Shown here piece by piece: positions 8,280 to 47,038 of a stretch of DNA of 64,000 nucleotides. Positions within the stretch are counted from its first letter, which is position 1; every line of letters starts with the position of its first letter. Source of the stretch: Chloroflexia bacterium (GTDB taxonomy: Bacteria; Chloroflexota; Chloroflexia; QHBQ01; JAICKM01); NCBI GenBank assembly GCA_050998805.1, contig JBPCPV010000015.1:145423-209422 (forward strand), in the 5' to 3' direction. The position numbers and the translations under genes were made by a program. The notes beneath the pieces are model-generated. The model was not told the origin of the DNA. It saw only the letters and a program-made list of their open reading frames with translations, and did no database searches.

Positions 8280-10199
8280 ATGTGCGGAATAGCGGGAGTC
8301 TACGACACCAGGGGTGCGCCGGCGGATGAGGCGGTGCTGCGGCGGATGGCCGCGGCAATCGCCCACCGCGGACCGGACGGCGACGGCTTCTACCTCGATG
8401 GGCCGGTCGGCCTGGCCCACCGCGCCTTGCGGATCATTGACCTCTCCGACGCCGCCCTCCAGCCGATGGCCTGCCCCGACACCGGCAACCAGTTGATATT
8501 CAACGGCGAGATATACAACTACGTCGAGCTGATGCGCGAGCTGGAGGCGCGAGGGCTGGAGTTTCGCTCCCACTCAGACAGCGAGGCGCTGCTGGCCGGA
8601 TACCGAGCCTGGGGCACCGACTGCGTGCAGCACTTCAACGGCATGTTCGCCTTCGCGATCTGGGACAGGGCGCGGGAGCGGCTCTTCCTGGCGCGCGACC
8701 GGATGGGCATCAAGCCGCTCTATTACTGGTGGGACGGGCGGCGGCTTGCCTTCGCGTCCGAGATCAAGGCGCTGTTGCAGCACCCGGCGATCAGCGCGCA
8801 GCCGAACGGCGCGGCGATAGCCGAGTACTGGCGGGCGATGTACACGGCCGGTGACCACACTTGGTTCGAGGGGATCAGGCGGCTCGAACCCGGTTGCATG
8901 ATGCTCGTGGACCGCGACGGGCTAGAGATACGACGCTACTGGGATCTGCCGGAGCAGGAAGACCCGCCGGGCCGCAGCGCGGGCAGCTACATCGAGGAGG
9001 TGCGGGGCCTGCTCGACAGCAGCGTCCGGCTCTGCCTGCGGAGCGATGTGCCGCTCGGCGCGCACCTCAGCGGGGGGGTGGACAGCTCGGCCATCGTCGG
9101 GCTGATCAGCCGGCAGCTCGAAGGCGGGAGGCTGAAGACTTTCTCGGGTGCGTTCGACTCCGGCCCGGCATACGACGAGCGGCCCTACATCTCGGCTGTC
9201 GCAGCCCGCTACCGGACGGACCACCACGAGGTGGTGCCAGGCCCCGCCGACCTTGTGGCGAGCCTGCCCCGCCTGGTATGGCACCTGGATGAGCCTGTGG
9301 CGGGGGCGGGCGCGTTCCCGCAGTACTTCGTCTGCCGGATGACGCGGGAAAACGGCGTGATCGTGGTCAACGGCGGGCAGGGAGGCGACGAGCTTTTCGG
9401 CGGCTACTTCGGCTACCTGCCGGCCTACCTCCGCAGCATAGTCGCCAGCTTCCGACGGCACCCATCCCCGGCGCTGCTGTCGGCCCTGCTCGGTGACGGA
9501 CTGCGGCTGTCGGCGCGCCCGGCGCTCCGGCAGGCGGCCATCTCGGCGCTGCGTGAGGGCCGTCGTGGTCGCCTGCGCCCGGACGAAGCGACGGAGTTGC
9601 CCGACTTCTTCGGACCGACCCTGCGCCGTCTCGACTTCGCGTCTCCGCGCACGGGAGATTATATCCCCACAGGGAGATCGGCGCTCGGCGAGGCGCTGGC
9701 GTTCGACCTGCGGCACTACCTACCTGCACTCTTGCAGGTCGAGGACCGGGTGAGCATGGCGTGGTCGCTGGAGTCGCGGGTGCCGCTGCTCGATTACCGG
9801 CTGGTCGAGCTGGCGATGCGGATACCGCCGGAGATCAAGCTGCGGGGGCTGGAGACGAAGCGGATCTTGCGGCGGGCCGTGGCCGACCTGCTGCCGGCAT
9901 CGGTCCTCGCCCGGCGCGACAAGAAAGGCTTCCCGACGCCGATCGGCCCCTGGTTCGCGGGGCCGTTGCAGCCCTGGCTGCGCGAGCAGTTGCTCGGCCC
10001 CCAGGCGCGAGATCGGGGCCTGTTCGAGCCGGAAGCCGTCGCCCGTATGCTCGGCGAGCAGGCGGCTGGCCGCGCCGACCACAGCCGCACGCTCTGGATG
10101 ATGCTCAACACAGGGCTGTGGTTCGAGCAGTTCATTGAAGCCCAGGGGGTCGGGGGGCAGGGATCGGCCCTCGATGCAGCAGTCACGGTCGCTGGCTGA
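8280..10199 (+). CDS. asnB: Asparagine synthase (glutamine-hydrolysing)
   Basis: MCGIAGVYDTRG... N-terminal Cys nucleophile. Contains the SGGVDSS PP-loop. Length 639 aa. The track ORF starts upstream at 8157 but the conserved N-terminus begins at the ATG at 8280. Confidence 0.9.
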   Translation: MCGIAGVYDTRGAPADEAVLRRMAAAIAHRGPDGDGFYLDGPVGLAHRALRIIDLSDAALQPMACPDTGNQLIFNGEIYNYVELMRELEARGLEFRSHSDSEALLAGYRAWGTDCVQHFNGMFAFAIWDRARERLFLARDRMGIKPLYYWWDGRRLAFASEIKALLQHPAISAQPNGAAIAEYWRAMYTAGDHTWFEGIRRLEPGCMMLVDRDGLEIRRYWDLPEQEDPPGRSAGSYIEEVRGLLDSSVRLCLRSDVPLGAHLSGGVDSSAIVGLISRQLEGGRLKTFSGAFDSGPAYDERPYISAVAARYRTDHHEVVPGPADLVASLPRLVWHLDEPVAGAGAFPQYFVCRMTRENGVIVVNGGQGGDELFGGYFGYLPAYLRSIVASFRRHPSPALLSALLGDGLRLSARPALRQAAISALREGRRGRLRPDEATELPDFFGPTLRRLDFASPRTGDYIPTGRSALGEALAFDLRHYLPALLQVEDRVSMAWSLESRVPLLDYRLVELAMRIPPEIKLRGLETKRILRRAVADLLPASVLARRDKKGFPTPIGPWFAGPLQPWLREQLLGPQARDRGLFEPEAVARMLGEQAAGRADHSRTLWMMLNTGLWFEQFIEAQGVGGQGSALDAAVTVAG

Positions 10200-23261: not shown

Positions 23262-23272
23262 GGGTGTGCGCT

Positions 23273-24508
23273 ATGCGTAGAGTCGTGATTACAGGCATGG
23301 GCGCTGTGACGCCTGTGGGCAATACGATACCGGAGACATGGGAGGCGTTGAAGGCTGGGCGGTCGGGCGTCGCGCGCATCACGCTCTTCGACCCCAGCCC
23401 TTTCGAGGTCCAGATCGCCGGCGAGGTCAAGGGCTTCGACAACTCCGGCATCCACCCGAAAGAGCTGCGGCATATGGACCGCAATACCCAGTTCGCCATC
23501 GTCGCCGGGCAAGAGGCCCTGCGCGACGCAGGCTACGAGATCGGCGAGCACAACGCCGAACGGACAGGCGTGATCCTCGGCACAGCTGCCGGCGGCCTGA
23601 ACACGATCCTGAGCCAGCAGAAGACCCTTGAAGAGCGTGGCCCCCGCCGAGTTAGCCCGTTCTTCATCCCGAACATGCTGCCCGATGCCGCGTCGGGGCA
23701 GCTGGCGATCGCGGTCGGAGCGCGGGGGCCGAACATGGCGATTGTCTCGGCCTGTGCGACCGGCGGGCACGCGATAGGCGAGGCGTGGGAGACGATCCGG
23801 CGTGGAGACGCCGACGCGGTTCTGGCCGGAGGCACAGAGGCAGTGCTCGTTCCGCTCGTCATCGCCGGTTTCTGCGTGATGCGCGCCCTGGCGAACGACC
23901 CCGACCCGACTCGGGCATCTAAGCCGTTCGACAAGAACCGCAACGGCTTCGTGATCGCCGAGGGCTGCGGAATGATGCTACTCGAAGATCTGGAGAGCGC
24001 GCTTGCGCGGGGCGCGCCTATCCACGCCGAGGTCGTCGGCTACGGCTCGACCAATGACGCCTTCGACATGGCCGGGCAGCGCGAGAGCGGCGTGGCAGCG
24101 ATCCGTATGATGCAGATCGCTCTACGCAAGGCTGGGCTGCGGCCCGAAGAAGTGGACTTCGTGAGCGCACACGGCACCGGCACGCCGCTCAACGATAAGA
24201 TAGAGACACTGGCGATCAAACAGGTCTTCGGCGAGCACGCCCACAAGCTGGTCATCTCGTCGTTCAAGTCTATGACGGGGCACATGATGGGCGCTTCGGG
24301 CGCTATCGGGGCCATCGTCTCCGCGCTGGCGATCCGCGACAGCCTGATCCCGCCAACGATCAATTACACCACACCCGATCCCGACTGCGACCTTGATTAC
24401 AACACCGGCGGCCTGCGCGAGCAGCCAGTCGAAACGGCGATCAGCAATGCAATCGGCCTCGGCGGGCACAACTCGTGCGTAGTCATCCGCAAGTACAGAG
24501 AGGGCTAA
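23273..24508 (+). CDS. fabF: Beta-ketoacyl-[ACP] synthase II
   Basis: MRRVVITGMGAVTPVGN...; active-site Cys (SACATG) and HGTGT His motifs. ~412 aa. Confidence 0.9.
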   Translation: MRRVVITGMGAVTPVGNTIPETWEALKAGRSGVARITLFDPSPFEVQIAGEVKGFDNSGIHPKELRHMDRNTQFAIVAGQEALRDAGYEIGEHNAERTGVILGTAAGGLNTILSQQKTLEERGPRRVSPFFIPNMLPDAASGQLAIAVGARGPNMAIVSACATGGHAIGEAWETIRRGDADAVLAGGTEAVLVPLVIAGFCVMRALANDPDPTRASKPFDKNRNGFVIAEGCGMMLLEDLESALARGAPIHAEVVGYGSTNDAFDMAGQRESGVAAIRMMQIALRKAGLRPEEVDFVSAHGTGTPLNDKIETLAIKQVFGEHAHKLVISSFKSMTGHMMGASGAIGAIVSALAIRDSLIPPTINYTTPDPDCDLDYNTGGLREQPVETAISNAIGLGGHNSCVVIRKYREG

Positions 24509-24510
24509 TC

Positions 24511-25764
24511 ATGTACAGCGATTCGCGCCGCGTGGTCGTCACCGGCTTGGGAGCGATCACGCCTATCGGCCAAAGCGTCGAGGAGTATTGGCGCAATCTC
24601 TGCGCCGGGGTGTCGGGCGCGGGGCCGATCACTCGGTTCGATGTGAGCGACTACCCTGTGAAGGTGGCCTGCGAGGTCAAAGATTTCGACCCGGCTAAGT
24701 ATATGGAGAGCCGCGAGGTTCGCCGCACCAGCCGCTTCACCCACTTCGCCGTCGCCGCCGCCTCCCAGGCCCTCGCCGACTCGGGGCTGACGATCACCGA
24801 CGCGAACGCCGAGATGGTCGGGGTCACATTCAACACCGGCGGCGGCGGCCTGGTGGACATCGCCGACGAGGTCATGGTCATGCAGGCGAAGGGTATGGGC
24901 CGCGTCAGCCCCTTCTTCATCCCCTCAATGATCCCCAACATGGCATCGGGCCGCGTCTCCCTCGAGTTCGGCGCGAAAGGCCCTGTGATCACATCGGTCG
25001 CAGCCTGTGCCAGCAGCATCTACTCGTTCATAGACGGCTTCCACCTGATCGGGCGGGGAGAGGCGGACGTGATCATCGCAGGCGGCACAGAAGCCGCTCT
25101 GACGCCTATAGCGGTAGCCGGTATGGGCAACATGCAGGCCCTCTCGCGCAACAACACACGTCGCCCCGAGGAGGTCAGCCGACCATTCGATGCCGGGCGC
25201 GACGGCTTCGTCTTCGGCGAGGGCGGCGGCGCGGTCATCCTCGAGGCCCTAGAGCACGCCCGTGCGCGCGGTGCCCATATCTACGCCGAGGTGCTCGGCG
25301 GCGCGCAGACCGGTGATGCATACCACATCACAGCCCCCGCGCCCGGAGGTGCTGGCGCAGCTCTTGCGATGCGCCGTGCCCTAAAATACGCCGGACTCGA
25401 ACCCACCGACGTGCAATACATCGTGGCCCACGGCACCAGCACGCCCCTGAACGACGCCTCGGAGACTGCGGCGATCCACACCGCCTTCGGCGATCATGCC
25501 CGCAACCTGGCGATCAGCTCGAACAAGTCCATGATCGGCCACCTGCTTGGCGCTGCCGGTGTCATGTCGGGCATCGCCGCGATCCTCTCCATCCGCGATC
25601 AGGTCGCCCCTCCCACCATCAACTACGACACGCCCGACCCCGAATGTGACCTCGACTACGTGCCGAACGTCGCCAGCCGGATGCCGATAAACACCGTGCT
25701 GATCAACGGCTTCGGCTTCGGCGGGCAGAACGGGGTGGCGGTTTTTCGGCGGTTCGGAGAATAG
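24511..25764 (+). CDS. fabF: Beta-ketoacyl-[ACP] synthase II paralog
   Basis: MYSDSRRVVVTGLGAITPIG...AACASS...AHGTSTPLND...; second tandem KAS II. Its ATG at 24511 lies 3 nt after the previous stop. Confidence 0.9.
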   Translation: MYSDSRRVVVTGLGAITPIGQSVEEYWRNLCAGVSGAGPITRFDVSDYPVKVACEVKDFDPAKYMESREVRRTSRFTHFAVAAASQALADSGLTITDANAEMVGVTFNTGGGGLVDIADEVMVMQAKGMGRVSPFFIPSMIPNMASGRVSLEFGAKGPVITSVAACASSIYSFIDGFHLIGRGEADVIIAGGTEAALTPIAVAGMGNMQALSRNNTRRPEEVSRPFDAGRDGFVFGEGGGAVILEALEHARARGAHIYAEVLGGAQTGDAYHITAPAPGGAGAALAMRRALKYAGLEPTDVQYIVAHGTSTPLNDASETAAIHTAFGDHARNLAISSNKSMIGHLLGAAGVMSGIAAILSIRDQVAPPTINYDTPDPECDLDYVPNVASRMPINTVLINGFGFGGQNGVAVFRRFGE

Positions 25765-27541: not shown

Positions 27542-28636
27542 TTGGGCGCTGTAGAGGAGCTTGCCGGGGTGATACGCGAGAGGATCCGGGCTGCCGGCGA
27601 GCGGATCACTTTCGCCGAATACATGGACCTGGCACTCTACCACCCGACCTACGGCTACTATAGCGCCGGTAGGGTCGCGCTCGGCCGCGGCGGCGACTTC
27701 ACGACCTCGCCTGAGGTGGACCCGGCCTTTGGCGCGCTGCTCGCCGAGTTCGCGCGCCGGTGCGATGAGAAGTTGGGCCATCCCGCGCGCTTTCTGCTGG
27801 CCGAGCATGGCGGCGGCTCCGGGCGGCTGATGCGTGACATGCTCGACGCGCTCCGCGAGACCCAGCCTGCCCTCTACTCCCGCGCCGACGCCGTGTTGGT
27901 GGAGCGAAGCGAGGCACTGCGCTCCCGCCAGCAGGCGTTGCTCGCGGAGGCGGGCCACGACCGAGCACGCTGGGCCGACGCGGCTGTAGGCACCGGCCTA
28001 GTCCTCAGCAACGAGTTGCTTGATGCCTTCGCTGTCCACCGGCTGCTCGCCGAAGAGGACGGTCTGCGGGAGATATACGTTGAGGTGGACGCCGACGGAC
28101 GCTTCGTGGAGACCATCGGCCCGCCCTCCGACCCGGCTCTCGCGGCCTATTTCGAGGACGCGACGGTGACGCCTCCCGACCGGCCATGCGAGGTGAACCT
28201 GGCGGCCCCTGCCTGGCTGCGCTCGGTTGCCTCCGACCTGGAGCGGGGCTTCGTGCTGACGATAGACTACGGCGATAGCGCGGCCCGCCTCTACAGCGAT
28301 CTGCGGCCCGAAGGCACCCTCTTGTGTTATAGTAATGGGCGGGTGACGGACGACCCCTACGGCGCGCCCGGTACACAGGATATGACCGCGCATGTGGACT
28401 TCACGACGCTCGAGCGTGTAGGCCGCGCCGCAGGGCTGCAAACAGTCGTAGCCACACGCCAGATGGAGTTTTTGGTGGACCTCGGCATCGGCGAACGGAT
28501 CGCCGCCCTTAGCGCCACGCCGCCCGAGTCGCGCGAGGCAGCCCGCGAGATGCTCGCCCAGCGCGCCCACCTCTTCCGCCTGATCGACCCCGACGGCCTG
28601 GGCCGCTTCCATGTGCTTGTGATGCTGAAATGCTGA
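27542..28636 (+). CDS. MidA/NDUFAF7-family SAM-dependent methyltransferase (DUF185)
   Basis: ...ITFAEYMDLALYHPTYGYYSAGRVALGRGGDFTTSPEV...LLAEHGGGSGRLMRD... matches the MidA signature. Confidence 0.75.
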   Translation: MGAVEELAGVIRERIRAAGERITFAEYMDLALYHPTYGYYSAGRVALGRGGDFTTSPEVDPAFGALLAEFARRCDEKLGHPARFLLAEHGGGSGRLMRDMLDALRETQPALYSRADAVLVERSEALRSRQQALLAEAGHDRARWADAAVGTGLVLSNELLDAFAVHRLLAEEDGLREIYVEVDADGRFVETIGPPSDPALAAYFEDATVTPPDRPCEVNLAAPAWLRSVASDLERGFVLTIDYGDSAARLYSDLRPEGTLLCYSNGRVTDDPYGAPGTQDMTAHVDFTTLERVGRAAGLQTVVATRQMEFLVDLGIGERIAALSATPPESREAAREMLAQRAHLFRLIDPDGLGRFHVLVMLKC

Positions 28637-29484
28637 CTGCCACGACAAAACGAGGAAACTGGTGCGGTGCCTGCGGCGAGCGGCTGGCGGGGCGCGAGAT
28701 GGTGCGCCTGCGGCTTGGCGGAGATGAGCCGGAGGCTCGCTACTACTGTGCGAGCTGCGCCGACGGCCTGCTGAGGTGCGCGGGCTGCGGCTGCCGGCTC
28801 GCGGAGCTTCCCGGCAGCCTCTTCGCGCCCGCCGGCCAGACGCGGCGGCTCTACTGCGTGGCCTGCTGGGACCGGCCGCACTGCAACGCCTGCGGCCATC
28901 CGGTCGGCGAGGTCTCATACCGCCGCGCCGATGGTCGCGTCTTCTGCGAGTCGTGCCACGCCACCGCCGTCTACGACCCGACCGAGGCGGTGCGGCTCTA
29001 TGAGCGCGTGAAGGCGACGGCAGCCGGGGCGCTGGGGCTGACGCTGAACGTCGGCGCGGTGCTGCACATGGTGAACCGTGAGCAGATCACCGCGCTGCGG
29101 AACAGCACACCAGGCGCGGGGCCGATGCCGGACGGCGGGGAGGAAGGCGCGGACCTGGTCGGCCTGTTCGTCCACGGCTCGCGCTTGCGCTCGATCTATG
29201 TCGAGTACGGCCTGCCGCGCATCTTCTTCTGTGAGGTCTTAGCGCACGAATACGCCCACGCCTGGCAGGCCGAGAACGCCCCTCTGCTCTCCGACCCTGA
29301 GCTGCGGGAGGGCTTCGCAGAGTGGGTCGCGTACAAAGTGGTTGAGAGTTGGGGCTGCCGCCTGCGCCTGGAGCGCTTCCGTGGGCGGCAGGATGTTTAC
29401 GGCGCCGGCCTGCGCCGCCTCCTCACTTGGGAGGCGGCGGAGGGCGTGGACGGCCTACTGGATCGCATTCGGCGAGAACGTTAA
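28630..29484 (+). CDS. DA1-like zinc peptidase (HExxH) with N-terminal Cys-rich (LIM-like/zinc-ribbon) fingers
   Basis: N-terminal CGACGE...YYCASCADGLLRCAGCGC...LYCVACWDRPHCNACGH...FCESCH. C-terminal ...FFCEVLAHEYAHAWQ... (HEXXH followed by AW, as in DA1-like peptidases). Its ATG overlaps the MidA stop. Confidence 0.6.
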   Translation: MLTATTKRGNWCGACGERLAGREMVRLRLGGDEPEARYYCASCADGLLRCAGCGCRLAELPGSLFAPAGQTRRLYCVACWDRPHCNACGHPVGEVSYRRADGRVFCESCHATAVYDPTEAVRLYERVKATAAGALGLTLNVGAVLHMVNREQITALRNSTPGAGPMPDGGEEGADLVGLFVHGSRLRSIYVEYGLPRIFFCEVLAHEYAHAWQAENAPLLSDPELREGFAEWVAYKVVESWGCRLRLERFRGRQDVYGAGLRRLLTWEAAEGVDGLLDRIRRER

Positions 29485-29499
29485 ATCGAGGGGGTAAAT

Positions 29500-30879
29500 A
29501 TGGCGAACGAAGTTTCCCTGCAATGCCGGCTGAACCTGAGCGCGGTGCCTGCGTCGAGCGAGCCGCGCCTCGTCTACCTAATGATAGACATCCGCCCCGG
29601 CGAGGGGCTGGGCACACGCTCCGCACCGGTGAACCTCGGCATCGTGCTCGACATCAGCGAGTCGATGCGCCTGCCGGTGCTGAGTCAGGCGCAGTTTCAG
29701 GAGTTGGCCCGTCTCGGCCATGTGCGCGAGATAATCGCCGACGGCATCCCTGTCTGGACCTTCCCGCATATCCCCCTCGAGATCAGGCGGGCCGCGCCCT
29801 CGAACCTCGACGCGGTGAAGCAAGCCCTCCACGAGGCGGTGACACATCTGGAACCCCAGGACCGATTTTCCCTAGTCGCCTTCGCGGGTCGGGCCGAGGT
29901 CTTGCTGCACTCCCTCACCGGCAGCGAGCGCGACCGCATACCCGAAGCCGTGGAGCGGCTCGACGCCGTGCGCCTTGGCGACGACACCGACATGCAGACC
30001 GGGCTATATGCCGGCCTCAGCGAGCTACGGAGCGGCGAGGTCGGCGGCATGATCAGTCGGATGGTCGTGCTCACCGACGGCTTCACCCGCAACCCCGAGG
30101 CGGTGGCCGCCTTCGCAAAACAGGCACAGCGGGCCGGCGTCGCGGTCAGCACCGTGGGCGTCGGCACCGATTTCAATGAGCAGCTGCTGGTCACCATGTC
30201 GGACGAGAGCCAGGGCAACGCATATCTGGCGCGCGAGCCGCGCGAGATCCCTCCGGCCTTCGCCAAAGAGCTAGAGGCTGTGCAGTCCATCACCGTGCGC
30301 CACATTGTCGCCAGTGTGCGACTGAGCGCCGGAGTCGAGCTACGCCGCGCCCACCGCATCCGCCCCGCGATCAGCACCCTCCGCGACGTGCCCATCCAGG
30401 ACCGCACCGTGGTCTTCGACCTCGGCGACCTGGAGACCGACAGGCCGCCCGCGCTCCTCCTCGAGCTGATCGTGCCCCCACGCAGCCCCGGCATGTTCCG
30501 CATCGCCGGCGTCACACTCGCCTATGACGTGCCTGGTGCCCCCGATACCACGGGCGCGCAGTCCCGCTGCGATGCCCTCCTCGACTACAGCACTGCCGGT
30601 ATGGGCGCGTTCGACCCCCAGGTTATGAACACGGTGGAAAAGGTCAGCGCGTTCAGCCTCCAGACCCGCGCGCTCGACGACGCCGCCCTCGGCAACGTCC
30701 AGGGCGCGACCACCAAGCTCCGCTCTGCGGCGACCCGCCTTCTCGCCCTCGGCGAACCCGACCTGGCGAACGCCGCCGAGCAGGAGGCCCAGAAGCTGGA
30801 GCAAGGCGGCCAACTCTCCGCCGAAGGCGCGAAGAAGCTCCGCTATGAGACCCGCCGCCTCACCCAGCGCCTAGAGTAA
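29500..30879 (+). CDS. von Willebrand factor type A (VWA) domain protein
   Basis: ...VNLGIVLDISESMRL... (MIDAS DxSxS) ...LVAFAGRAEVL...MVVLTDGF.... The C-terminal ~200 aa are uncharacterised. RBS GAGGGGG upstream. Confidence 0.8.
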   Translation: MANEVSLQCRLNLSAVPASSEPRLVYLMIDIRPGEGLGTRSAPVNLGIVLDISESMRLPVLSQAQFQELARLGHVREIIADGIPVWTFPHIPLEIRRAAPSNLDAVKQALHEAVTHLEPQDRFSLVAFAGRAEVLLHSLTGSERDRIPEAVERLDAVRLGDDTDMQTGLYAGLSELRSGEVGGMISRMVVLTDGFTRNPEAVAAFAKQAQRAGVAVSTVGVGTDFNEQLLVTMSDESQGNAYLAREPREIPPAFAKELEAVQSITVRHIVASVRLSAGVELRRAHRIRPAISTLRDVPIQDRTVVFDLGDLETDRPPALLLELIVPPRSPGMFRIAGVTLAYDVPGAPDTTGAQSRCDALLDYSTAGMGAFDPQVMNTVEKVSAFSLQTRALDDAALGNVQGATTKLRSAATRLLALGEPDLANAAEQEAQKLEQGGQLSAEGAKKLRYETRRLTQRLE

Positions 30880-30890
30880 AGGAGAAACCG

Positions 30891-32462
30891 ATGACAGACG
30901 ACATGCTCAACAGCGTGATACATGCGCCCGACTTCCCGCCCGGCCTCGACTGGCTGAACACGCCCGACCACAGGCCGCTCACCCTCGGCGACCTCAAGGG
31001 CAAGCTGGTGCTGCTCGACTTCTGGACCTATGGCTGAATCAACTGCATCCACATCCTGCCGCAGTTGCGGCGGCTCGAAGAAAAGTACCCCGACCGGCTC
31101 GCGGTCGTCGGCGTCCACGCCGGCAAGTACACCGCCGAGCGGTCCACGTCCAACATCCGCGATGCCGTGCTGCGGCTCGGGATCGACCACCCTGTCGTTA
31201 ACGACCGCCAGTTTCGCATCTGGAAGGCTTACGCGGTGAGCGCCTGGCCGACGGTCGTGATAGTGGGGCCAAACGGCTACTACCTCGGCACGAACCCCGG
31301 CGAGATCACATTCGAGGATTTCGACCCGGTCATCGCCTCTGCGCTCGCCCACTTTGAGCAGGCCGGGATGATCAGCGCTGCCCCCCTGCCGCTCCACCCG
31401 GAGCACTTGGACGAGCCTGAACGCCCGCTCCGCTACCCCGGTAAGGTGCTGGCTGTGGCCGGAAGCGACGGCACGCCTGACCGCCTCTTCATCGCCGACA
31501 GCGACCACGCCCGCGTGCTCGGGGCGCGCCTCTCGGTGGACGGTCGCGCCGCCGAAGTCGAGTGGGTCGCCGGCTCCGGCGCTCCGGGCGCAGACGACGG
31601 GCCGTTCGAGCAGGCCGGCTTCAACCGCCCCCAGGGGATGTCGCTCGTCGCGGACACTCTCTACATCGCCGACAGCGAAAACCATACCCTGCGCGCGCTA
31701 GACACCGGCAAACGGACCGTGCGGACTATCGCGGGCACAGGGCAGATCGGCAGGTTCGGCGCGGCGGGCGGCGCGGCCCTGAGCACCCCGCTCAACTCAC
31801 CGTGGGATCTCGCCTGGACCGGCAACCGGCTCTACATCGCCATGGCCGGCTACCACCAGCTCTGGGTCTACGACCCCGCCGGGACCGTCGCGCCCTTCGC
31901 CGGCACCGGCCGCGAGGAGCTGGCCGATGGCCGGCTCTGGTCGCCGAGCGTCCTCAAGGCGCGCGTCCTGGACGACCTGCGGGGCTACGCGAGCCTCGCC
32001 CAGCCCACCGGCATCGTCGCCGACGGCGAGCGGCTCTACTTCACCTGTAGCGAAGCCCAGGCTGTGCGCTCTGTCAGCACGGGTGGCGAGAACAATGTAA
32101 GCACGTTCGTCGGCACCGGGCTGTTCGACTTCGGTGACAAAGACGGGCGTGGCGATGCCGTGCGCCTGCAACACCCCTTCGGCCTCGCTTTTCACGAGGG
32201 GCGGCTGCTCGTGGCCGACACCTACAACAGCAAGATCAAGCGGCTCGACCCGGCGACGCGGGAGGCGGCATCCTGGCTCGGCAACGGCGAGCGCGGCCTG
32301 GTGGACGGCCCCGGCGCTGATGCGCGCTTCAACGAGCCGGAGGGCCTGAGTGTGGCCGGAAATCGGCTCTATATCGCCGACACGAACAACCACGCGATCC
32401 GCGTCGTGGACCTCACAGACCCGGCCGGCAACGTCTCTACCCTCGAGCTGCGTGGCCTCTAG
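30891..32462 (+). CDS. Thioredoxin-like domain + NHL-repeat protein with an in-frame TGA (31035-31037) at the first Cys position of the CxxC motif; candidate selenoprotein, or else a pseudogene
   Basis: Strong SD (AAAGGAGAAACCG) then ATG at 30891. It encodes MTDDMLNSVIHAPDFPPGLDWLNTPDHRPLTLGDLKGKLVLLDFWTYG-TGA-INCIHILPQLRRLEEKYPDRLAVVGVHAGK..., continuing in the same frame into the track ORF 31065-32462 (NHL repeats). Reading TGA as U restores the redoxin motif WTYGUINC. Confidence 0.5.
31056..31073 (+). promoter_or_regulatory. Stem-loop 18 nt downstream of the in-frame UGA (possible bacterial SECIS-like element)
   Basis: ctgccgca-gt-tgcggcgg: 8 bp stem including one G-U pair, with G and U in the apical loop. 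Confidence 0.25.
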
Positions 32463-32481
32463 CCTCCGGCGTCCCGATTGG

Positions 32482-34638
32482 GTGCTTGCGGCCATCTTGC
32501 TCGCGGCGCTGCTGCTGCGGCTGCTCTACCCGCAGGCCGTCGGCCTGCCGGAGCGGACGCCGATGCACGGCTTCGTGATAGACGAGCAGGAGTACTACGG
32601 CGCGGCCTCCGTGCTCGCCGACGGGCGCGGCCTCCACTTCTACGACACCTTCACCTGGACCCGTACCCCCGCATACGTCCTGCTGGTCGGCTCGCTCTTT
32701 GTCCTGCTCGGTCGGGACACCGGCCCGGTGTTCATATTGCAGGCGCTGCTCTCGACGCTCACCCTCTGGGGCCTGGCGGCGTTGGCCGGGCGAGAGGCCG
32801 CCCGCGCCCCCGCGCTCGGCCTCTCGCCGCGCTCTGCCATGCGCTGGGCAGCTCTGACAGGCGCGGTCTGGCTCCCCTTCACTCTCTTCTCCAACCTCCT
32901 CGTGAGCGAAACACTCTTCCTGCTGCTGATCGTCGGCGCGTTCCTGCTGCTGGAGAGATGGGCCGACTCAACCCACCCGTCCCTCCTCCTCGCCGCCGGT
33001 ATCCTCCTCGGCCTAGCCGCGCTCACCCGCTCGACGACGCTCGCGTTCTTGCCGCTCGCGGCCGGCTGGGCGGGCTGGGTCGCGTGGCGGGCGGGTGCGG
33101 TGCGGCGCTGGGCCGTCGCTCCGGTCGCTCTGCTGGTTGCCGCAGGACTGACTTTGCTGCCTGCCGTAGTCGCGAACTATGCCGACTACGGTCGGCTGAT
33201 CATCGGCGACACGACCGGTGGCTACAACCTCTGGCTTGCGGCTAACGGCGTCCGCGACGCCGAGCGTCTGTCGGCAGACCTCGCCGCCATCCCCAACCCC
33301 GCCGACAAGCAGAGCTACGCCTACAGCCAGGCGTTCGAGGAGATCGCCGCCCGCCCCGCCGACTTCGTGGGCAAGGGCCTGAAGGAGTCGCTCGACCTCT
33401 GGAAGATCAACTTCAGCTCTGAGGAGCGGCAGGTGCGCGGCTTCGCTGAGGGCCGCGTGCCCGCCCTCCACCTCTGGAGCCTCTTCGTCGGAGAGGATCT
33501 GCTTTACGTGATCATCGTGCCGCTCGCCCTGCTCGGCCTCGCAGCCGCGCCACCCCACCCGATCAAACTCCTGCTCGCCCTCTGGGCACTGACATGGGTC
33601 GTGATGGCCTTCGTCTTCTTCGCGGTCACCCGCTTCCGCTTCCCCGTAGTCTCTCTACTGCTCCCCTGGGTGCCCCTCGGCCTTGCCACCCTCCTCCGCC
33701 TCTCCTCGCGCCTCTCCGCACCCGTACCGCCGGCGTCCCGCCGTCCCCCGGCACCCGTCAAAACTCAAAACTCGCCCCTGGTGCTCGCCGCGCTCTTCCT
33801 GCTCGCCGTCGCCCCCGACCTGCCGAACGACCTCTCGGTGACCCTGCTCGGCGCGCAGAAGTGGGAGGCGCAAGCGCCCTACCGCGATGCCGCGCAAAAC
33901 CCCGACGCGGTCGAGGCCCTTACTCTGCTGGCGAAGGCCGACCAGTCGGTGCCGGACACCCTTTTCGCCCGCGACGCCGCCGAGATCCGGACAGCTCAGG
34001 ACGATGCCGGCCTGCTGGCGGTGGAGGCGCGCCCCGAGGTTTCGCTTGCCCGCGGCAGCCCACTGGCCGAACGCTTTGAGCCGTTCCTCCTCAGCGGGGA
34101 GATCGCCCGTCGCCTCGGGCAAGAAAGCGCCTCCCGCACCGTCTTCGGCTCGCGCCAGATACACGACGCCGACGCCGAGGCCGTGGACTGGGCCTGGCAG
34201 TTCTTGCACCCCGACCCCCAAGCGCGGCTCGATGTCGGAGGCGACCTCGATTTCGGCGCGTTGCGCGGCTTCCACAAGAGCGAAGCTGTCGGGCAAGGGT
34301 CGGGCCGGGTAACATACCGCTGGAGTGGGCCGGAGAGCACGATGCGGATACAAAGCCCTAGCGAGACTCACGCGCTTGTCATCCGCTGGAGCGGCGCTCG
34401 CCCGCCCGGCGTCCCGCCAGCTGTTGTGACCGCGCGCGTTACTTACGATGCCGGTCTGCACTACGAGCACAGCTTCACCCTGCCTACCACCGACACCTGG
34501 CGGGAAGACACGATCTGGAACTTCACGCTGAAAGGCGGTGCCGGGGCGGCCTTGCACATCACCACGAACACCTTCGTGCCCGGCGGCTTCGACCCCCGCG
34601 TGCTCGGTGTGCGCGTGGATTGGGTGGAGTTGCGTTGA
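32482..34638 (+). CDS. GT-C fold membrane glycosyltransferase, PMT_2/ArnT-like (GT39/GT83-like) with a C-terminal soluble domain
   Basis: First TM LAAILLAALLLRLLYP followed by the ...VIDEQEYYGAASVL... DE-motif loop. ~13 TM helices, then a ~300 aa extracytoplasmic C-terminal region. Start placed at the first in-frame GTG after the upstream stop. The track ORF starts at 32350, inside the previous gene. Confidence 0.55.
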   Translation: MLAAILLAALLLRLLYPQAVGLPERTPMHGFVIDEQEYYGAASVLADGRGLHFYDTFTWTRTPAYVLLVGSLFVLLGRDTGPVFILQALLSTLTLWGLAALAGREAARAPALGLSPRSAMRWAALTGAVWLPFTLFSNLLVSETLFLLLIVGAFLLLERWADSTHPSLLLAAGILLGLAALTRSTTLAFLPLAAGWAGWVAWRAGAVRRWAVAPVALLVAAGLTLLPAVVANYADYGRLIIGDTTGGYNLWLAANGVRDAERLSADLAAIPNPADKQSYAYSQAFEEIAARPADFVGKGLKESLDLWKINFSSEERQVRGFAEGRVPALHLWSLFVGEDLLYVIIVPLALLGLAAAPPHPIKLLLALWALTWVVMAFVFFAVTRFRFPVVSLLLPWVPLGLATLLRLSSRLSAPVPPASRRPPAPVKTQNSPLVLAALFLLAVAPDLPNDLSVTLLGAQKWEAQAPYRDAAQNPDAVEALTLLAKADQSVPDTLFARDAAEIRTAQDDAGLLAVEARPEVSLARGSPLAERFEPFLLSGEIARRLGQESASRTVFGSRQIHDADAEAVDWAWQFLHPDPQARLDVGGDLDFGALRGFHKSEAVGQGSGRVTYRWSGPESTMRIQSPSETHALVIRWSGARPPGVPPAVVTARVTYDAGLHYEHSFTLPTTDTWREDTIWNFTLKGGAGAALHITTNTFVPGGFDPRVLGVRVDWVELR

Positions 34639-36221
34639 CGCACGCTGACCCTGCGCCCCGCCGCACGTTCCTGCCCGCGCGGGGCGATTGGGCCGGTTGG
34701 CTGCTGCTCGGCGCACTCGCGTTGCTCGCCGCCCTGCTGCTGCTCAAGCTGCTCGACACGGCGACGATCATGCGCGCGCTCTTCAACTGGCCCTTCCAGC
34801 ACGACGAGTCGGAGAGCATGATCGTCTCCGAAACCCTCCTCCTCGACCACGGCACGAACATCTATGCCAATCTGACCCCACAGCAGTTCATCGCCGCGCC
34901 TTATCCGCCGTTATATTACCTGCTCAACTGGCCCTTCATCCACCTCCTCGGCCCCACGTTCAAGGCCGGGCGGGCGATCACTATAGCAGCGACCTCCGGT
35001 GCCGGACTGTTGATCTACGCGCTCGGCCTCCGCCTCATGCGCGACCCCCTGGCGGCGCTGCTTGCCGCGCTGACCTGGGCCGCGCTCGATATGGTCGCGT
35101 TCTGGGGGTCGCTCGTCAAGCCCGACATGCTCTCTGTCACCTTCGGGCTGGCCGGCCTGCTCTGGGTGATACGCGCCGCCGAGGCGCGCTGGCCGCTCTG
35201 GGGCGCGCTGCCATTCTTCTGGGCCGCCTTCTACAGCAAGCAGACGGCGATTGCCGCCGGGGTCGCCGCCTGTGCGTGGCTCCTGCTCCGTAACCGGCGC
35301 ACCGGCGTCGCCTTCGCCGCCGCCTACGCCGCAGGCGCGGCCGTCGGCTACCTCCTGCTCGATTGGCTGACGGCAGGCGGCTACTTCTACCATGAGTTTA
35401 CCCTCCACGACCTCCCCTGGGACTCCGACCGCTTCCTGCTGCGCCTCACCGACTGGTTTTCGACCTACTGGCCCCTATTGCTCCCCGGCGTGGTTGGCAT
35501 CGCGGTGTCTCTCATCTCGCGCCGTCCCTCACCCCCACCCCCAACTGTCATTCCGAGCGCATCCACGGTCATTCTGAGCGCAGCGAAGAATCTCGGCTCC
35601 GCACCTACTGTCATTCTGATCGCCGCCTACCTCGCTATGGGCATCGTCGTCTCGAGCGGCGCGGGCACGCTCGGCGGCAACCACAATCACCTGCTCGACC
35701 TGACTGCCGCCTGCTGCATCGGGGTCGCGCCTGCCGTCGCCTTGCTCCGGCGCGCGGGTCGGCCTGCGGCGAGGTTGCTGGGGGCCGTAGCGGTGCTGGC
35801 GGTCTGCACCCAGGTGCCGGAGCTTTACCGCATCCCTCACTGGCTCGGCCACGATCTCCGGCTACCGACCGCGCTGCGCGCCGAGGGGATGGCGAACGTC
35901 GCGCAGTACACCAGCAACACGCCCGGTGCCGTCTACTCGACCGACCTCAGCCTACTGCTGGCGACAGGCAAGTGGCTGCCCCACCTCTGGACGACCGACC
36001 CCTACACCCAGACCCACGCGGCAGGTTACCGCCGCTGGGACGAGTCCGCGCTGCTCCAGGCGGTGCGCGAACGCCGCTTCGCTCTCGTTGTCGTCCCCTA
36101 CTCGCTCGAAGACCCTGCGCTCGACGCCACCGGCGACCTCTCGCCAAACATGGTTAAGGCGCTACAGGAGTCCTACCGGCTCGACCAGCGGAATGTGCTC
36201 TATATCTACAAGCCGAAGTGA
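34620..36221 (+). CDS. Second GT-C-like polytopic membrane protein (putative glycosyltransferase) carrying an in-frame copy of the dispersed repeat element
   Basis: TTG start overlapping the previous gene's end. ...NWPFQHDESESMIVSETLLLDHG... (DE-type loop motif) and multiple TM helices. Residues ...PTVIPSASTVILSAAKNLGSAPTVILIAAY... are encoded by 35544-35623, which is the repeat actgtcattc(c/t)gagcgcagcgaagaatc plus flanking half-copies. Confidence 0.5.
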   Translation: MGGVALTHADPAPRRTFLPARGDWAGWLLLGALALLAALLLLKLLDTATIMRALFNWPFQHDESESMIVSETLLLDHGTNIYANLTPQQFIAAPYPPLYYLLNWPFIHLLGPTFKAGRAITIAATSGAGLLIYALGLRLMRDPLAALLAALTWAALDMVAFWGSLVKPDMLSVTFGLAGLLWVIRAAEARWPLWGALPFFWAAFYSKQTAIAAGVAACAWLLLRNRRTGVAFAAAYAAGAAVGYLLLDWLTAGGYFYHEFTLHDLPWDSDRFLLRLTDWFSTYWPLLLPGVVGIAVSLISRRPSPPPPTVIPSASTVILSAAKNLGSAPTVILIAAYLAMGIVVSSGAGTLGGNHNHLLDLTAACCIGVAPAVALLRRAGRPAARLLGAVAVLAVCTQVPELYRIPHWLGHDLRLPTALRAEGMANVAQYTSNTPGAVYSTDLSLLLATGKWLPHLWTTDPYTQTHAAGYRRWDESALLQAVRERRFALVVVPYSLEDPALDATGDLSPNMVKALQESYRLDQRNVLYIYKPK

Positions 36222-45970: not shown

Positions 45971-46935
45971 TTGATAGTCCCTCCTGTGCCAGCTAGATAG
46001 ATCGCGTGTCTCGCCTGCTCTTTGCGGCCTATTATAGCACGCCGGGGCGTTTATTGGTAGAAGGCGGCGGATTCTTACTCCGTGCGTCGAGCGCAGAGCG
46101 ACTCTCCCACAGACGATAGCTTTGCTTCGAGCTACGGCTCTCTGAGCTTGGGTATCTGAAGAACCGTGCCTGAGAACTGATAAAGTAGGAAAAACGCGGG
46201 TATAGGCACGGGCCGGGCATAATTATCAGATTTCGTGCCTGGCGTGAGCTGATATTTCGCGGCTCTCTATCAGTAGGAAGTGGTTAGTGGTTAGTGGTTG
46301 GTAGTCAGGAGGTTGTCCCGGCGATCCACGAGTGAAGCCGTGTCTTGCAGCTGTAGTTGGCGGCAGTAAGTGAATGAGTAACGTTTTGTGTATATGCTGA
46401 CGATAAGATTGTGTAAATAGAAGAAGACGGCACTCGATGTTACAGAGCCATCGGGGGGGAGGACTTTGCTCGCTATTTTTACCCTCTCACTTGTAATATC
46501 CATTTCAGGGGGCATTTACTGCCAGATTTTGGGGCTTGGGGAGGGAATCGGGGCAAAGATACTCCGAAAGATCTAGACGATTGCGGATTTCGGAGTGCGG
46601 ATTGCGGATTGAGGGCGGCGAGGTGGGCGGATCTCGAAGCTCAACGCGGGTTGGCGTTGTTGCTGTGAAAGTGGGTCTTGTGAACGGATATGAGGGCAAG
46701 AGTGGCCTGACGTAGCAGTTTTGGTATCGGAATCGGGTCGATTTTACTTCAAGAAGCAAGTATGACGGTCGTTGAGACGGATGTTGGTATGTAACAACAG
46801 GAATGGCGCGTCTGGGTGAGCTGGGGTTGTCGGGGAGGAGGCTTGTGGGGTTGGGTGGGGTGGAGATACGAGTAATTACCGGGCCTTAGAGCTTGCATCC
46901 ACTTAGGGGTTTTGTTATAATAGTCGTGTCCACTT
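45971..46935. repeat. Repeat-rich non-coding region (~0.95 kb) upstream of tRNA-Ser
   Basis: Contains (GTGGTTA)-type heptamers (46279-46303) and the ATTGCGG/GGAGTGC heptamers (46578-46614). Segments 46470-46534 and 46083-46120 are reverse-complement matches to 2996-3066 and 2463-2490. Confidence 0.75.
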
Positions 46936-47026
46936 GGGGAGATGCCAGAGTGGTCGAATGGGGCCGCCTGCTAAGCGGTTAAGCGACCTTAAAGTTGCTT
47001 CTAGGGTTCGAATCCCTATCTCCCCG
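46936..47026 (+). tRNA. tRNA-Ser (anticodon GCU), long variable arm
   Basis: Acceptor stem GGGGAGA/TCTCCCC, discriminator G. Anticodon loop cUGCUaa. Long extra arm. T-loop GGTTCGAATCC. CCA not encoded. Confidence 0.85.
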
Positions 47027-47038
47027 CCCTTTTAACAA

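Follow-up and report, generated by a model that had tools for sequence, protein, structure and literature searches.

A predicted selenocysteine form of the thioredoxin-NHL family, encoded across an in-frame UGA in a Chloroflexia bacterium

A gene that very probably encodes a selenoprotein is located at 30891-32462 of a 64,000-nucleotide (nt) stretch of contig JBPCPV010000015.1 from a Chloroflexia bacterium (assembly GCA_050998805.1). This whole stretch is called the window here, and positions are counted from its first letter. The gene appears to be a single coding unit, in which an in-frame TGA serves as a functional selenocysteine (Sec) codon and a hairpin shortly downstream serves as its Sec insertion sequence (SECIS) element. 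From its sequence, the product is predicted to be a cytoplasmic two-domain homologue of SOQ1 and NHLRC2, consisting of a thioredoxin (Trx)-like domain followed by an NHL-repeat propeller. The evidence is comparative: the same TGA occurs at the same codon in many relatives, the codons before it look coding, and the hairpin follows the TGA rather than the family as a whole.

The gene and its reading frame

A single frame leads from the ATG at 30891 through the TGA to a TAG, 524 codons including the stop. Its elements are as follows.

30878-30884, + strand: Shine-Dalgarno sequence AAAGGAG, read from the sequence, 6 nt before the ATG at 30891
30891-32462, + strand: predicted complete selenoprotein coding sequence, 523 residues plus stop, from translation and Pfam and PDB matches
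31035-31037, + strand: in-frame UGA, predicted Sec codon (U49), at the N-terminal nucleophilic position of CxxC and present as TGA in relatives
31044-31046, + strand: TGC codon of Cys52, the predicted resolving Cys of UxxC, from the sequence and its conservation in the alignment of TGA forms
31056-31073, + strand: putative bacterial SECIS-type hairpin, from RNAalifold, covariation and minimum free energy (MFE)
32460-32462, + strand: true stop codon TAG, from sequence and translation

The Shine-Dalgarno sequence overlaps the TAA stop (30877-30879) of an upstream vWA-domain gene. Up to the TGA, the frame encodes MTDDML...KGKLVLLDFWTYG, ending in ...LVLLDFWTYG, and past it the same frame reads INCIHILPQLRRLEEKYPDRLAVVGVHAGKY..., giving the motif WTYG-U-INC when the TGA is translated. 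The original prediction for this DNA had described a strong Shine-Dalgarno sequence and an ATG at 30891 opening a redoxin-type frame, which continues past the TGA into a 465-amino-acid (aa) NHL open reading frame (ORF). The sequence and Pfam matches to Thioredoxin_8 and AhpC-TSA confirm the first of these points, and the translation confirms the second. It had also placed a WTYCCINC-type motif at this point in homologous proteins, and the homologues do carry WTY[C/G]-C-INC in register with the TGA.

Gene callers divide the gene into a 48-aa ORF and the 465-aa ORF (31065-32462), a division also present in the Logan annotation. The TTG taken as the start of the longer ORF is the UUG in the loop of the hairpin. 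In a database protein search, for which the U of the query was replaced by C, all 13 of the closest proteins (65-100% identity) are N-terminally truncated, with lengths of 449-470 aa and no Trx domain. Since all 13 are truncated at this point, the splitting of the gene by callers is systematic. More distant database homologues, at about 50% identity, are full length (630-730 aa) and include the Trx domain.

The TGA codon in relatives

A scan of species-representative genomes yielded 80 homologous loci (L001-L080), which were translated in frame. A stop stands at exactly the first Cys of CxxC in 34 of them, and a Cys in the other 46. Aligning orthologues to see whether Cys or Sec occupies this column had been proposed along with the original prediction. 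With the window added, the column holds TGA in all 35 stop-bearing sequences, among which TAA and TAG do not occur, and TGC (30) or TGT (16) in the 46 Cys forms.

The loci with TGA come from metagenome-assembled genomes (MAGs) labelled Chloroflexia, Dehalococcoidia, Ardenticatenia, Thermomicrobia, Dormiibacterota and NC10. Dehalococcoidia account for many of them, including closed chromosomes. The TGA is also found in five JGI metagenome contigs encoding the closest relatives, each with a 46-47-aa mini-ORF before a shortened gene. The proteins of the 34 genome assemblies and five metagenome contigs differ from that of the window by 30-50%. Window positions 28019-32844, with the TGA, are matched at 100% identity by a Logan assembly of SRR33880238.

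In a rough neighbour-joining tree, 34 of the 35 TGA forms make up one deep clade, mostly from Chloroflexota. As this single clade spans about 50% protein divergence, the codon has been kept for a long time. The NC10 form (L080:10142-10201, NC10 bacterium CSP1-5) is instead placed among the Cys forms, which suggests either an independent Cys-to-Sec conversion or gene transfer. Taken together, these placements point to at least two probable origins of the TGA, along with its long retention.

By their pattern of substitution, the 48 codons upstream of the TGA are under coding selection. Across the TGA forms, entropy in this segment is 0.68, 0.26 and 1.28 at codon positions 1, 2 and 3, respectively. 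Between the window and L001, 25 of 36 codons differ before the TGA, 13 of them synonymously and 12 non-synonymously. The G+C content at third codon positions (GC3) of the window gene is 0.92 upstream of the TGA and 0.88 downstream.

A hairpin associated with the TGA

Downstream of the UGA, CUGCCGC (31056-31062) pairs with GCGGCGG (31067-31073) to give a 7-base-pair (bp) stem closed by the apical loop AGUU (31063-31066). The distance from the UGA is 18 nt to the stem and 25 nt to the loop. A stem-loop starting 18 nt after the UGA had been predicted and is indeed present, but it had been drawn with 8 bp and a 2-nt loop rather than 7 bp and a 4-nt loop. The published consensus for bacterial SECIS (bSECIS) elements specifies a loop of 3-9 nt, an upper stem of 4-16 bp, a UGA-to-loop distance of 16-37 nt and an MFE of at most -7.5 kcal/mol, with a G as the first or second nucleotide of the loop and, as a rule, G or U after it (PMC13188914). 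The window hairpin lies within each of these bounds: its loop is 4 nt, its stem 7 bp, its spacing 25 nt and its local MFE -12.6 kcal/mol, and the G at loop position 2 is followed by U (A-G-U-U). The original prediction had called for a bSECIS check of the region after the UGA, and measured against the published consensus the hairpin agrees on every point (PMC13188914).

For the comparison with relatives, the 35 TGA forms were aligned without gaps as RNA, with columns counted from the U of the UGA. In this alignment the codon of Cys52 is conserved in all 35 forms, columns 10 and 11 (T, G) being invariant and column 12 either C or T. The RNAalifold consensus recovers exactly the 7-pair stem, columns 22-28 with 33-39, with compensatory changes in five of the seven pairs. 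Standard pairs occupy 94.1% of cells; shifting the 3' partner by 1-3 columns lowers this to 30-70%, and none of 500 shuffles reaches the observed value. Individual exchanges are instructive. In L043, CCU...AGG replaces CCG...CGG through two synonymous changes that keep the pair; in L041, CCC...GGG keeps it through a synonymous Pro change and an Arg-to-Gly substitution; and in the sub-clade to which the window belongs, CUG...CGG or CAG stands in place of UUU...AAA, again with the pairs kept. Two forms, L036 and L080, build a 7-bp hairpin at this site from unrelated sequence, and its loop contains G and U. That of L080 reads CCAGAGC-UGGAC-GCUCUGG.

The Cys forms lack the hairpin and encode ...IPDLKKLE where the TGA forms have ...LPQLRKLE. 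Mean local MFE is -12.3 kcal/mol in TGA forms and -5.0 in Cys forms (Mann-Whitney p = 1.5e-12, with kinship ignored). Within the loop, Leu is encoded by UUG in 32 of 35 TGA forms but in only 4 of 46 Cys forms. UUG is otherwise rare: the window gene uses it for 2 of its 55 Leu codons, and seven other window genes for 6% of theirs. Within the seven-member window sub-clade, none of the six third codon positions inside the hairpin varies, compared to 78% of other third positions. By these comparisons, the hairpin is best described as a conserved RNA element that goes with the TGA.

The 18-nt segment separating the UGA from the stem (31038-31055; AUCAACUGCAUCCACAUC) is nearly invariant at synonymous sites in the window sub-clade, and largely so across the whole TGA clade. 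This segment may be part of an extended SECIS or of the UGA context.

Weighing a functional Sec codon

Several observations weigh against a functional Sec codon. Taken as a single sequence, the hairpin is at chance level: 8.7% of all TGA trinucleotides in the GC-rich window precede a gapless hairpin of at least 7 bp that obeys the same loop and distance rules, and folding z-scores against dinucleotide shuffles are -0.03 and -0.59. At the gathering threshold Rfam has no match anywhere in the window, and no bacterial SECIS model fits. The statistics that set Sec against Cys forms ignore shared ancestry, and most TGA forms stem from a single origin. Finally, tblastn with Escherichia coli SelA, SelB and SelD detects no selA, selB or selD in the 64-kb window, and ARAGORN detects no tRNA-Sec (selC) there. 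The minimum-energy fold of a 66-nt piece also favours a different hairpin, and a search of 30980-31140 against Rfam at E <= 10 returns only two weak and meaningless matches on the opposite strand. It is the comparison with relatives, not the single sequence, that gives the hairpin its significance and settles its structure.

The absence of Sec genes from the window is relevant to a second account, in which the TGA is an ancestral Sec codon whose machinery has since been lost, leaving a gene that is dead or dying, or a UGA that is weakly read by a near-cognate tRNA (Trp or Cys). The Sec trait is often lost in bacteria (PMC1794560). This account is nevertheless improbable. The gene keeps an intact frame, Shine-Dalgarno sequence, Trx motif and hairpin, and the synonymous sites of the hairpin are invariant in the seven sub-clade members while 78% of those elsewhere vary; any loss of machinery would therefore have to be very recent. 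The same invariance argues that Sec machinery is probably present in the lineage of the window, or was until very recently.

The tblastn search also covered the 80 loci, and the 34 TGA-form loci were scanned for tRNA-Sec, with none found by ARAGORN. A full-length selA, scoring 541 bits with TIGR00474 (cut-off 268), is encoded at 787-2160 on the complementary strand in one TGA form, a Dehalococcoidia MAG (L007). It lies about 8 kb upstream of the Trx-NHL gene, and no selB or tRNA-Sec is seen beside it. Another TGA form (L054, on DCAE01000079.1, with the TGA at 10109-10111) is from Dehalococcoidia bacterium UBA1141, which is among the top ten bacteria by number of selenoprotein genes in BSepDB, with 49 (PMC13326102). 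The selA gene and the BSepDB listing show Sec use in these two relatives with the TGA, which lends indirect support to a Sec codon in the window. More generally, tRNA-Sec species have been reported in Chloroflexi (PMC5389517), and a tRNA-Sec of the 8/4 type has been described for this group.

Three other candidates for Sec machinery were set aside. A SelB-like match in L023 is EF-Tu, in a tuf-secE-nusG-rplKA cluster, and a SelB in L037 belongs to a Cys-form genome and has no bearing on the TGA forms. A 90-nt "tRNA-Pro(ggg)" reported by ARAGORN at L062:10632-10721, with its anticodon at position 28, has no Rfam support and is probably a false positive; this odd prediction directly follows the TGA-form gene of a Dormiibacterota MAG. 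The window itself contains a single tRNA, a 95-nt tRNA-Ser(GCU) at 46935-47029 on the + strand, which is not a tRNA-Sec.

It could also be supposed that the TGA results from an error in sequencing or assembly, or that TGC has recently mutated to a nonsense TGA and made a fresh pseudogene in this genome only. A single base separates the two codons, and the sole second copy of the exact sequence, in the Logan assembly of SRR33880238, possibly derives from the same sample. This explanation has very little probability given that the same TGA is present in 34 other genome assemblies and five metagenome contigs from different projects, that the 48 upstream codons and the hairpin are conserved under selection, and that an unbroken series of 35 TGA stops is not what random nonsense mutations would be expected to leave. 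The preference for Sec read-through over pseudogene or error expressed in the original prediction is upheld by the shared TGA, by the coding character of the upstream codons and by the way in which the hairpin tracks the TGA.

Equally hard to credit is the idea of two deliberate products, a 48-aa peptide that stops at the TGA and an NHL protein initiated at the internal TTG at 31065, although automatic annotation calls just this pair in the window and in relatives. The break would fall inside the beta1-alpha1 active-site turn of one Trx fold that aligns continuously with SOQ1 and NHLRC2. The called starts vary among relatives, with products of 449-470 aa, the TTG in the window is the hairpin loop and has no Shine-Dalgarno sequence before it, and the homologues with Cys are uninterrupted. 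A genome-wide reassignment of UGA like that of genetic codes 4 and 25, to Trp or Gly, has nothing in its favour except the in-frame TGA itself and can be dismissed as having next to no probability, since TGA is an ordinary stop, with which 16 of the 50 confident high-GC3 ORFs in the window end, the 64 kb contain no further convincing in-frame TGA and ORFs are long under genetic code 11. Four other in-frame-TGA candidates in the window pass the GC3 filter, and look like off-frame, low-complexity artefacts. It is the combination of the comparative TGA data, the signs of coding selection and the usage of stops that excludes sequencing error, recent pseudogene and alternative code, and Sec insertion at 31035-31037 is retained as the preferred reading.

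Protein family and architecture

Two domains are recognized in the predicted protein.

30960-31280, + strand: Trx-like (Thioredoxin_8 / TlpA-ResA-like) domain, residues ~24-130, from Pfam and alignment with SOQ1
31422-32456, + strand: six-bladed NHL-repeat beta-propeller, residues ~178-522, from Pfam (NHL, 6.1e-24) and PDB matches

The Pfam matches in the first domain are Thioredoxin_8 (PF13905, 2.2e-14) and AhpC-TSA (PF00578, 1.2e-07), with Redoxin found as well. The best PDB match, 7djj (E 7e-110), is the lumenal region of Arabidopsis SOQ1 and runs without a break through query residues 11-522. It is followed by human NHLRC2 (6gc1, E 1.5e-92) and then by mycobacterial DipZ, which matches over the Trx domain only. 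The propeller-only chains 7djm (SOQ1) and 6g7w (NHLRC2) match query residues 177-522. With PDB sequence homology at E 1e-110, the fold is taken as fixed, and the placement in the Trx-NHL (NHLRC2-like) family made in the original prediction is borne out. The cis-Pro motif W119-P120-T121 aligns with SOQ1 and NHLRC2, and the active-site register is shared, WTY-C-C-I-N-C in those proteins corresponding to WTY-G-U-I-N-C in the window protein. The Gly in place of the first Cys of CCINC is also found in many bacterial homologues of the Cys form.

Similarity to the thiol-disulfide oxidoreductases ResA and TlpA is at the superfamily level only. The ResA model NF002854 scores 46.2 bits against a cut-off of 170, and the TlpA model NF047696 scores 28.1 against 230. 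Membership in the ResA-like WAxxUGC selenoprotein family NF041054 is ruled out by a score of 15.3 bits against a cut-off of 300 and by a different motif, and NCBIfam has no equivalog for the window protein.

The window protein ends where the propeller ends, at position 513 of the 667 in the SOQ1 chain, and so does not include the C-terminal domain. By a hydropathy scan alone, it has no hydrophobic N-terminal segment, Sec49 being preceded by just 48 residues, and it does not show the extracytoplasmic or lumenal character typical of SOQ1 and of most bacterial Cys forms. As it has no membrane anchor, HAD domain or signal peptide, we infer that it is probably cytoplasmic.

This architecture is general among the TGA forms, which are about 495-525 aa long, start about 47 residues before the U, lack a hydrophobic N-terminus and end with the propeller. 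Most Cys forms are 650-735 aa; they begin with a signal-peptide-like stretch and carry an additional C-terminal domain of about 140 aa. Accordingly, 34 of 35 TGA forms have 453-483 residues between the motif and the C-terminus, compared to about 580-640 for most Cys forms. There are exceptions on both sides: L017 is a TGA form that keeps the C-terminal domain (601 residues from motif to C-terminus), and L040 and L063, from Latescibacterota, are short Cys forms. The association of Sec or Cys with architecture suggests two functional classes.

A possible mechanism

By analogy with the bacterial Sec pathway, the hairpin at 31056-31073, presented to a ribosome that has reached the UGA, would recruit the SelB·GTP·Sec-tRNA(Sec) complex by way of its loop. 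Sec would be inserted at 31035-31037 as Sec49, and translation would go on to yield the 523-residue protein, in which Sec49 replaces the nucleophilic Cys of C-C-I-N-C to give G-U-I-N-C. From Trx-fold chemistry and the example of SOQ1, it may be that an oxidised substrate binds in the cleft between Trx domain and propeller and is attacked there by Sec49, that a Sec49-Cys52 selenenylsulfide is then formed and that a cytoplasmic reductant reduces it again. The best guess for a substrate, by analogy with SOQ1, would be protein methionine sulfoxide or a disulfide.

A tentative proposal, which we consider somewhat less probable than its negation, is that the TGA forms are a distinct, mostly Chloroflexota, cytoplasmic subfamily of the NHLRC2/SOQ1 proteins that has no C-terminal domain. 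In such proteins the propeller would hold a substrate on which the Sec centre acts directly, for instance as a methionine-sulfoxide or disulfide reductase, with no relay of electrons to a C-terminal domain. If this is true, the catalytic redox nucleophile would be marked by the Sec/Cys pair as the second Cys of CCINC, which is Cys90 of human NHLRC2. It is well established that a Sec/Cys pair signals a catalytic redox Cys, and the existence of a Sec form argues that the CxxC (the CCINC centre) in the Trx-like domain found in NHLRC2 and SOQ1 is truly redox-catalytic.

Genomic neighbourhood and annotation

In the window, the neighbours of the selenoprotein gene are vWA, DA1-like, methyltransferase, ketoacyl synthase and PMT_2 genes, none of them linked to selenium or redox chemistry. 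Upstream, on the + strand, are a Cys-rich protein with a weak DA1-like peptidase match (28630-29484) and the vWA-domain protein (29500-30879). The same pair is upstream on the Logan contig (L083), which is a duplicate of window 28019-32844, and in the JGI relatives L084, L085 and L087 sigma-70, cupredoxin or other genes are found there instead. Downstream, a membrane-protein ORF of about 750-760 aa without a Pfam match overlaps or directly follows the selenoprotein stop (window 32350-36221, + strand; L084:4167-6452; L088:2214-4460). This conserved gene order may reflect an operon. In the window, a PMT_2 (glycosyltransferase-39-like) ORF comes next. Farther upstream, at 23264-25764 on the + strand, two tandem beta-ketoacyl synthase genes (414 aa and 429 aa) are present as overlapping ORFs.

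All close relatives examined share with the window a systematic mis-annotation of the gene, as an ORF of 46-48 aa followed by a shortened "NHL", "YvrE" or "alkyl hydroperoxide reductase" gene. Because the gene is split in annotation, both the Trx domain and the predicted selenoprotein are invisible in databases. If the assignment is correct, it adds a widespread selenoprotein to Chloroflexota, soil lineages included.

Comparison with known systems

Trx-fold UxxC selenoproteins with an in-ORF hairpin are the commonest kind of bacterial selenoprotein. The recoding mechanism proposed here is conventional, and the window protein would join more than 100 known selenoprotein families as a further Trx-fold UxxC member. 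In a 2026 catalogue, which covers 119 selenoprotein families and subfamilies, there are several generic Trx-fold ones, such as a redoxin family protein (PF08534), and no entry for an NHL propeller, SOQ1 or NHLRC2 (PMC13188914). An NHL, SOQ1 or NHLRC2 selenoprotein is likewise not mentioned in the Sargasso Sea, GOS, deep-Sep and BSepDB papers, and nothing relevant came up when full texts were searched for NHL together with selenoprotein or for selenocysteine together with NHLRC2. The window gene may already be included, under a generic name, in homology-based surveys. Like the catalogued Trx-fold families (PMC13188914, Table 1), the window protein has an N-terminal Sec in UxxC, a TlpA/ResA/redoxin-type fold, a bSECIS within the coding sequence just downstream and widespread Cys homologues. 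Those families are described as stand-alone Trx-fold proteins, however, and the window protein adds an NHL propeller. It shares a ResA-like Trx fold with the NF041054 selenoprotein, but its motif differs.

The SECIS of E. coli fdhF is the best-characterised bacterial Sec insertion element. As in that element, the window stem-loop lies within the ORF directly 3' of the UGA, carries a G and then a U in a small apical loop and falls within the consensus spacing of 16-37 nt. Unlike it, the window stem is short and perfect, without a bulged U, and there is no sequence similarity between the two elements.

The closest structural comparisons are to SOQ1 and NHLRC2, the latter a disease gene. For SOQ1, support for a redox-catalytic Trx-like domain is recent and comes from a 2024 preprint: the Cys pair of this domain is redox-active, and the C-terminal domain, which takes electrons from this pair, has a reported methionine sulfoxide reductase activity (preprint 10.1101/2024.11.01.621559). 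In the crystal structure of NHLRC2, the CCINC motif is at the N-terminus of helix alpha1, in a cleft facing the propeller; the human protein has no insulin-reductase activity and no known function, and a Trx-like redox role for it is disputed (PMC6107167). The window protein is unlike SOQ1 in having no C-terminal domain, membrane anchor, HAD domain or signal peptide. It resembles both proteins in its combination of a Trx-like domain with a propeller, in the register of the active-site motif and in the WPT motif, and it differs from both in its predicted Sec in place of the second Cys of CCINC and its Gly in place of the first.

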